The notes under the pieces were generated by a model. It did not search any database. It was not told the origin of the DNA and saw only the letters and a program-made list of their open reading frames with translations. The translations under genes and the position numbers were made by a program. A stretch of 63,554 nucleotides of DNA, the filler included, from Dugesia japonica (lineage: Eukaryota): NCBI GenBank assembly GCA_001938525.1. It is 5 parts of 5 records of this genome, joined end to end, with 100 filler letters (N's around TTAATTAATTAA, not from the genome) between each part and the next. Parts side by side here need not be neighbours in the genome. Positions count along the whole stretch, not along the records: positions 24,510 to 42,893 come from MQRL01491281.1; 4 more parts are not named here. One strand, given 5' to 3'. Positions 41,182 through 41,215 of this stretch are shown piece after piece; the stretch's first letter is position 1, and each line of letters opens with the position of its first letter.

Positions 41182-41215
41182 GTTCCTGAAGAAGACTATT
41201 GTCGAAAATTTGAAC
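41182..41215 (+). ncRNA. Minimal type-I hammerhead ribozyme motif (copy C, best preserved) in a Penelope-type pseudo-LTR repeat (about 41141-41273)
   Basis: GTTC-CTGAAGA-A-GAC TATT GTC-GAAA-AT-TT-GAAC: intact CUGANGA and GAAA boxes, stem II GAC/GTC, stem I GTTC/GAAC, palindromic AAATTT in place of stem III, one extra A after position 9. Confidence 0.72.

Follow-up and report, generated by a model that had tools for sequence, protein, structure and literature searches.

A complete minimal hammerhead ribozyme motif of type I lies on the plus strand of the Dugesia japonica window, the 63,554-nucleotide stretch of DNA analysed here, and is referred to as copy C (Table 1). In order, it comprises one strand of stem I (GTTC), CTGAAGA, an extra A, a GAC/GTC stem with a 4-nt loop, GAAA, A-T-T-T and the closing GAAC. 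Stem I pairs 41182–41185 with 41212–41215, and the core starts with C3 at 41186. The extra A, at 41193, is placed between positions 9 and 10.1. Stem II pairs 41194–41196 with 41201–41203, its G10.1-C11.1 pair being G41194-C41203. G12 to A15.1 occupy 41204–41207 and U17 is at 41211; the palindrome AATT spans 41207–41210, with A41208/T41209 as the palindromic 15.2-16.2 pair. The core CUGANGA ... GAAA ... UH closed by stem I, as expected of the minimal type-I hammerheads of Penelope-like elements (PLEs), is present in copy C, and so are the extra base, the G10.1-C11.1 pair and the palindromic 15.2-16.2 pair. An earlier note on this DNA had described a minimal type-I PLE hammerhead with one additional base following A9 and a helix III that is palindromic, which matches the consensus in Fig. 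S3 of PMC4209133.

The metazoan PLE motifs described in that paper are likewise of type I, with CUGANGA plus one extra base and G10.1-C11.1. They also share the missing loop III, the palindromic 15.2-16.2 pair, the short stem I and the AU-rich flanks, and occur as thousands of mostly solo copies and as opposite-strand pairs. At 3 bp, stem II of the present family is at the short extreme, 5–8 bp being usual in the published set. U17 and the 3-bp stem II were considered as novel features and rejected, since the same figure includes an A-U-U-U junction from Crassostrea gigas and, from Caenorhabditis briggsae, a stem II of 3 bp.

The window has a GC content of about 26% and consists of five segments joined by N44-TTAATTAATTAA-N44 spacers. 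The 12-nt 5′ half of the hammerhead core occurs seven times in it, compared with 0.037 occurrences expected by chance. C3 of these half-cores is at 11928 (+), 39246 (+), 41186 (+), 43643 (−), 57002 (−), 57024 (+) and 57194 (+), spread over four of the five segments. The earlier note had counted six loci in four unlinked contigs; the four segments were confirmed, and we infer from the spacers that they are unlinked to each other. When a descriptor of the full minimal hammerhead was run on both strands of the window, 41182–41215 was the sole match; at least one match was obtained in 2% of 300 block-wise dinucleotide shuffles. Copy C is therefore the only copy with an intact core, as had been proposed, and the accompanying claim that at least six loci fit the consensus had to be reduced to one of the seven core-bearing copies. 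In the other six, the core or stem II is broken (Table 1). Two further box-only fragments were found near 14383 and 59359. A shared AT-rich tail with the GATCGAAGC box had also been reported; the copy at 39246 is without this box on its own strand, and its inverted partner (39181, −) has it. The inverted element piece beside the copy C motif, the further tail of about 60 nt and the endonuclease relic had been overlooked.

Table 1. Members of the repeat family and associated features in the window
Feature	Position	Strand	Basis
Copy C, complete minimal type-I hammerhead motif	41182–41215	+	Sequence reading and descriptor match
Copy C, spacer of the pLTR with the GATCGAAGC box, as far as the first fixed 3′ end (41270/41272)	41216–41272	+	Read overhangs
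Copy C, inverted tail, residues 3–19 of the PLE ORF, ends at the second fixed 3′ end	41132–41181	−	
Copy C, left target-site duplication, 12 nt, 1 mismatch to 41272–41283	41123–41134	+	
Copy C, right target-site duplication	41272–41283	+	
Decayed C-terminal PLE GIY-YIG endonuclease, ends at the last codons of the ORF	56643–56855	+	P0002 match
Target duplication of 12 nt, exact, where the ORF ends, left copy (right one at 57078–57089)	56844–56855	+	
Copy D1, tail-bearing, hammerhead broken (A at 12), 5′ end about 4–6 nt before C3 (57002)	56856–57007	−	
Copy D2, head-to-head with D1, 3′ half of hammerhead deleted (C3 57024)	57008–57077	+	
Copy D3, last ORF codons, stop (57093–57095), 98 nt non-coding, broken hammerhead (C3 57194; A at 8, extra C), box, first 3′ end	57078–57296	+	
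Copy B1, tail-bearing reverse copy, core internally deleted	39094–39244	−	
Copy B2, stem I AATTC/GAATT, palindrome ATAT, A17, U3 together with G8, stem-II mismatch	39241–39290	+	
Copy E, tail-bearing, C17, A at 12, stem-II mismatch (C3 43643)	43522–43648	−	
Copy A, 5′ half of the core and stem II preserved, GAAA missing, reaches to the first 3′ end	11914–12003	+	
Fragment F, spacer and box only, bounds approximate	14365–14420	+	
Fragment G, hammerhead 3′ side and box only, bounds approximate	59325–59390	−	

An Rfam search of the window at E values up to 5 returned four matches, none from a hammerhead family; weak matches to miRNA families land on locus D. The exact hammerhead pattern gave four matches in metagenomes, which had a GC content of 53–57% and were without the family's spacer and tail, and are regarded as chance matches. 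No match was obtained in viral contigs.

Several other features of the window were recorded. An isolated, degenerate SSU rRNA fragment is present at 4055–4177 (−), with an Rfam score of 41.9 bits, below the gathering score. A RasGAP exon (Pfam E 4e-8) lies at 33257–33514 (−), and the probable following exon of this host gene at 30940–31233 (−). The relics at 19500–20416, 22929–23018, 39464–39679, 62376–62648 and 60333–61126 (−) are, from their motifs, presumably like hAT-type and mariner-type transposases; a Pfam search of these relics found no matching family. The RasGAP exon, the rRNA fragment and the transposon relics fit a eukaryotic, probably animal, origin of the DNA. Tandem arrays of 13 bp and 11 bp and a diverged repeat spaced 126–335 bp occupy 1–175, 6154–6526 and 55112–55890. 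Just upstream of copy A, gag-like broken frames with two CCHC zinc-knuckle-like motifs, recognized by eye, were seen at 11362–11814 (−).

To determine the abundance and the ends of the family, two whole DNA-type runs were placed on 41000–41400 at 80% likeness. The contigs placed numbered 14,998 and 14,639, nearly all of them within a 140-bp unit at 41132–41272, in agreement with the high copy number claimed earlier. The summed depth over the core was about 1.4–1.6 million, compared with 9–13 on unique flanks; this ratio is not a copy number, as overlapping contigs inflate summed depth, and its use as an exact count was rejected. With overlap allowed for, the data suggest roughly 10^4–10^5 copies, consistent with the approximately seven loci in 62 kb. 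This exceeds the 2,000–9,000 motifs given in PMC4209133, although those are descriptor hits and the present figure refers to pieces, most of them probably broken, so that the two are not directly comparable.

The overhangs behind 41270 disagree with each other (0.44–0.46, as random flanks do), and those before 41132 disagree likewise (0.46), which identifies both positions as element ends. Reads running past 41272 continue for eight more bases and then enter the reverse complement of 41181–41132. This stretch is therefore an inverted copy of an optional 3′ tail of about 60 nt, and its reading as an upstream leader was rejected. In copy C, an inverted tail adjoins a copy in direct orientation that has no tail of its own. 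The corresponding opposite-strand joint, 41181–41272, was the best supported among the joints listed, and the natural order of the parts is visible on the minus strand in copies B1, D1 and E. Only one or two placed records per DNA run fitted two places, and one joint among those listed goes back. No tandem monomer array was present among the 47 TRF rows of the window. Inverted and partial copies, an optional tail with two fixed ends and a variable target duplication, all traits of EN+ PLEs, were thus found together.

The protein of the element was reached from locus D. An open frame at 56538–56900 matched a 77-aa protein, P0001, at E 2e-7, the sole match among 1.84 billion representatives. A profile of the two led to P0002, a protein of 843 aa in which RVT_1 was detected at the curated cut-off and GIY-YIG at E 2.8e-4, 1 bit below the cut-off. 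With a limit of E 1e-10, a further 40 relatives of P0002 were found, several of them carrying both domains (PF00078, PF01541). Residues 772–842 of P0002 matched the endonuclease relic with 56% over 71 aa (E 6e-14). At its other end, residues 2–20 matched the D1 tail (56906–56850; 68%, E 0.005) and residues 3–19 the copy C tail (41180–41130; 76% over 17 aa, E 0.084 with tblastn). These two matches are weak singly, yet both land on the tail. In all four runs, the overhangs behind 41272 contain an ATG three bases past the first 3′ end, in frame with the P0002 match, and with the eight read-derived bases this ATG aligns with the first residue of P0002. The PLE origin proposed earlier is now backed by protein evidence, P0002 matching both the endonuclease relic and the tail. 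The single ORF with RT and C-terminal GIY-YIG is tied to the repeat through P0002, the full ORF not being in the window.

Other searches were less productive. Pfam recognized neither the window relic nor P0001, a word-based search using only the relic had no match in 598 candidates, and the ESM Atlas provided a lead only, in the form of one cluster with GIY-YIG on 15% of its members. The window contained no RT fragment from the 42 proteins. In viral contigs, 34 pattern matches to P0002 relatives were obtained, of which none was confirmed.

P0002 exhibits a DKT motif, a cysteine-rich RT-EN linker (CxCx5C), and an endonuclease with CxxC between GIY and YIG and downstream histidines (CCHH). Its closest matches, P0003–P0005, P0008 and P0012, share the linker. 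DKT and the linker distinguish it from Penelope/Poseidon, which are without both. The Nematis/Hydra C-terminal EN+ PLEs, as described in PMC8557442, are similar in their single ORF, length of under 3 kb, C-terminal GIY-YIG and linker Zn-finger, and the Hydra clade also in DKT and the CxCx5C linker. However, CCHH is absent from the Hydra clade in that description and retained in P0002, and for this reason P0002 was not filed with it. ORFs of the P0002 kind, with DKT, the CxCx5C linker and CCHH retained, may be a Nematis-side subgroup.

At the end of the endonuclease relic, its last 12 nt recur exactly at 57078–57089, after which the frame resumes for one codon and the stop. Because of this exact duplication, the D1/D2 unit is considered to have inserted into an older, 5′-truncated copy at its ORF end, and D3 is the continuation of the relic beyond the inserted unit. 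After the stop, 98 nt precede C3 of the D3 hammerhead, followed by the first 3′ end. The hammerhead is therefore located between the ORF stop and the ORF start, whose codons are in the tail, as in PLE pLTRs. The order of the element is ORF (RT, then GIY-YIG), stop, about 98 nt, hammerhead, about 60 nt, first 3′ end and optional tail, the tail of about 60 nt being the first 18 or so codons of the ORF. An ORF plus a pLTR of about 190 nt would give an element of about 2.7 kb; P0002 comes from a contig of similar length, 2764 bp, and DNA of a full-length element was not encountered.

Target duplications of 12–13 nt were convincing at three of the five multi-part loci tried, namely C, the D insert and E. 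None was found at locus A or for the whole D locus, and none that was convincing at B. A duplication of the copy C quality was reached by 0.4% of 3000 random zone pairs, and exact repeats of at least 12 nt by 0.13%. Copy E is flanked by a duplication of 13–15 nt (43509–43523 and 43645–43659) that overlaps its stem-I 5′ strand. Inverted copies are present at loci B, C and D. At B, the two copies are head-to-head, and a single AATT palindrome in the 5′ strand of stem I belongs to both. Four copies start or change orientation no more than about 6 nt before C3, at 39241–39246, 41180–41181, 43644–43648 and 57003–57008.

The earlier note had proposed that stem I covaries. The pairings GTTC/GAAC, AATTC/GAATT and TATTC/GAATA are all present, but the covariation amounts to two subfamilies and one ambiguous copy: the fifth pair of TATTC/GAATA cannot safely be counted because four of the TATTC bases are inside the target duplication of copy E. 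Between the window subfamilies, stem-I pair 4 is G-C or A-U, the helix-III palindrome reads AATT or ATAT, and U, A and C are all found at position 17. Variants reaching at least 5% in some run were then collected from four runs, with 40 of the 49 variant rows covered. Among these 40 rows, five of the six free hammerhead positions varied, compared with one of the 28 constrained positions (Fisher p 1e-4, post hoc), and the lone varying constrained position, 41215 C>T, keeps a G-U pair. Without three A>G sites seen in RNA only, the p value of this contrast was 0.07. On the same rows, the constrained positions (1/28) also differed from the spacer (13/57; p 0.03), and from the tail with p 0.09. The variant pattern in the core and the differences between subfamilies are suggestive, and are not a formal covariation result.

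In RNA run X17, A>G was observed at 41190, 41193, 41198, 41222 and 41228 in 9–20% of reads, in one mate direction. At 41193 the counts were 54/266 versus 1/179, and all such sites were below 0.3% of DNA depth. One explanation would be A-to-I editing of copies that fold back, another the expression of a small number of loci carrying these alleles; the DNA and RNA are from different samples.

When folded in isolation, the copy C 38-mer gave stems I and II as its minimum free energy structure (−5.8 kcal/mol, z −1.9, with 8 of 200 shuffles as good), and five other copies gave z values between −0.5 and 0.7. The pairing probability of the hammerhead stems was 0.0 with the flanks 41132–41272 included, and about 0.3 within 41170–41240. 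In the homodimer of the 38-mer the palindromes are paired, yet not as an exact double hammerhead. Cleavage at U17 is usually slower. The account of NUH triplets in PMC3138052 includes U and gives no rate for UUU. The minimal hammerheads of PLEs are reported to have no activity as monomers and low activity as dimers (Cervera and de la Pena, PMC4209133), and dimer cleavage of PLE hammerheads by Lunse et al. is cited in a review (PMC6765202).

The RNA data comprised two runs, one oligo-dT and one cDNA. The family accounted for 1,574 of 13.6 million reads in X17 and 33 of 10.5 million in X16, with good coverage in both directions. Of the placed reads, 94% (X17) and 100% (all 33, X16) ran on into unlike sequence. 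RNA ends at the predicted cut after 41211 were not seen, there being no pile-up of molecule starts or ends in X16 or X17, both fragmented cDNA libraries, which show molecule ends poorly. Frangieh et al. also report no RNA-seq ends at the cut site (PMC11167929). With respect to small circular RNA, both runs show the bidirectional read-through, and such libraries can lose small circles. The signal looks like passive read-through in host transcripts and is compatible with both the presence and the absence of cleavage.

Taken together, the repeats are very probably short or inverted end-pieces of a PLE, with 41182–41215 as the intact minimal hammerhead of its pLTR, likely self-cleaving only as a dimer or with the help of protein. 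That the copies derive from an autonomous PLE follows from the ORF codons in the tail and from the continuity of D3 with the endonuclease. The non-autonomous, retrozyme-like family that had been proposed is not supported, as there are no tandem monomers, the tail consists of the first codons of the ORF and one copy is continuous with the 3′ end of the endonuclease. A short unit forming its own retrozyme- or SINE-like element, with a small or circular RNA mobilized in trans by the PLE protein, is accordingly judged very unlikely. It would account for the very high number of a unit of about 140–200 bp, for six of the seven core-bearing copies having no upstream ORF sequence and for the four that start close to C3, and retrozymes have been proposed to come from PLE pLTRs (Li et al., bioRxiv 10.64898/2026.07.22.740005). 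Non-LTR retrozymes do resemble the family in their type-I hammerhead, short AT-rich unit and PLE link (PMC7229834; same preprint). They are, however, defined in PMC7229834 by tandem monomers of 150–450 bp, each with a hammerhead, and here such monomers are absent from the window, the motif is minimal rather than canonical, and ORF codons are attached, with D3 running on into the endonuclease. The RNA reads, too, run through in both directions, as expected of passive host transcription. Barely credible, finally, is a chance look-alike within the palindromic end of a DNA transposon (a MITE or Helentron). The copies do make fold-backs, some shuffled windows contain a descriptor match and Rfam found no hammerhead, but the link to RT and GIY-YIG at both ends, the variable fold-back junctions in place of fixed terminal inverted repeats and the agreement with the PLE consensus, exact down to position 9.1 and G10.1-C11.1, all argue against it.

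A more serious alternative, though still a somewhat unlikely one, accepts the PLE and holds that the hammerhead of this subfamily is a relic that does not cleave, or serves purely as a signal, structural or protein-binding. U17 within a UUU triplet, the 3-bp stem II and the 4-bp stem I are what such a relic might show, and the published minimal hammerheads cleave weakly even as dimers (PMC4209133). In addition, catalytic mutants were without effect on the insertion of PAc (Poseidon of Anolis carolinensis) in vitro (PMC11167929), Naiad PLEs are described as spreading without canonical hammerheads (PMC8557442), and each of the seven core-bearing copies extends across the cut site, which indicates uncleaved RNA as their template. 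On the other hand, the catalytic positions are without a variant at 5% or more in the four runs, among 40 of the 49 rows, where the spacer has some. The window subfamilies retain both the helix-III palindrome (AATT, ATAT) and an H at position 17 (U, A, C), many of the published PLE motifs have U17 (PMC4209133), and the PAc hammerhead did cleave upon addition of protein (PMC11167929).

For the preferred reading, end-pieces of an autonomous PLE, the published background is close at hand. Truncation at the 5′ end, inversion and a tail that may or may not be present are described for PLE copies (Craig et al. 2021, PMC8557442), and the tail is bounded by two internal sites of RT initiation within the 5′ part of the ORF (Frangieh et al. 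2024, PMC11167929). According to the latter study, the endonuclease favours AT-rich DNA at the ORF-pLTR junction, and the PAc hammerhead needs protein in order to cleave and is not required for insertion in vitro. PAc resembles the present family in its two fixed 3′ ends within the ORF start, optional tail, AT-rich targets and absence of RNA-seq ends at the cut site, and its preferred cutting at the ORF-pLTR junction is paralleled here by one insertion at the last codons of the ORF. It differs in that its hammerhead overlaps the start codon, whereas here about 60 nt lie between the hammerhead and the first matched codon downstream of it, and the tail of about 60 nt is longer than the usual 30–40.

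By analogy with PAc, the element protein would nick AT-rich DNA and start reverse transcription at either of two internal RNA sites, giving the two fixed ends. Reverse transcription would then copy back through the uncleaved hammerhead, mostly stopping early or folding back, and leave solo or head-to-head copies of 90–250 bp between 12–13-nt duplications. Copy C would be one such product. As in the published minimal hammerheads, the AATT palindrome may let two motifs build helix III, with cleavage following 41211; a single genomic copy, C for instance, is probably inactive when no second copy pairs with it. The anatomy fits each structural point of PMC8557442 and PMC11167929, from which the biochemical steps are carried over. 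Selection on the core most likely acted in mobile master elements, with the dispersed copies decaying later, as six of seven have.

An unlikely extension is that the 5′ edge of the hammerhead sets a boundary, the solo copies being a self-amplifying mini-element of about 150 nt and not the result of random 5′ truncation. Reverse transcription from the tail sites closest to where the RNA begins would reach the 5′ edge of stem I and there run out of template or fold back. A 5′ start within about 6 nt of C3 was seen in four of the seven core-bearing copies, a sample selected by its core and biased, and two or three head-to-head junctions fall there. If true, the mini-element would be an intermediate between PLE pLTRs and retrozymes and, with 10^4–10^5 copies, the genome a natural testing ground for the importance of PLE hammerhead cleavage in transposition.

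The family is an ordinary member of the class described in 2014, in which an animal genome holds many PLE end-pieces bearing minimal hammerheads, and its arrangement is a published one. It provides a clean genomic example of predictions from the first in vitro study of PLEs, namely the pair of 3′ ends, the tail built from ORF codons and the insertion of the element into itself where the ORF ends. For annotation, such repeats of 140–250 bp should be labelled as PLE fragments, and not as miRNA hairpins or retrozymes. The abundance of this family would make genome-wide mapping of 5′ and 3′ ends a usable test of the role of the PLE hammerhead.
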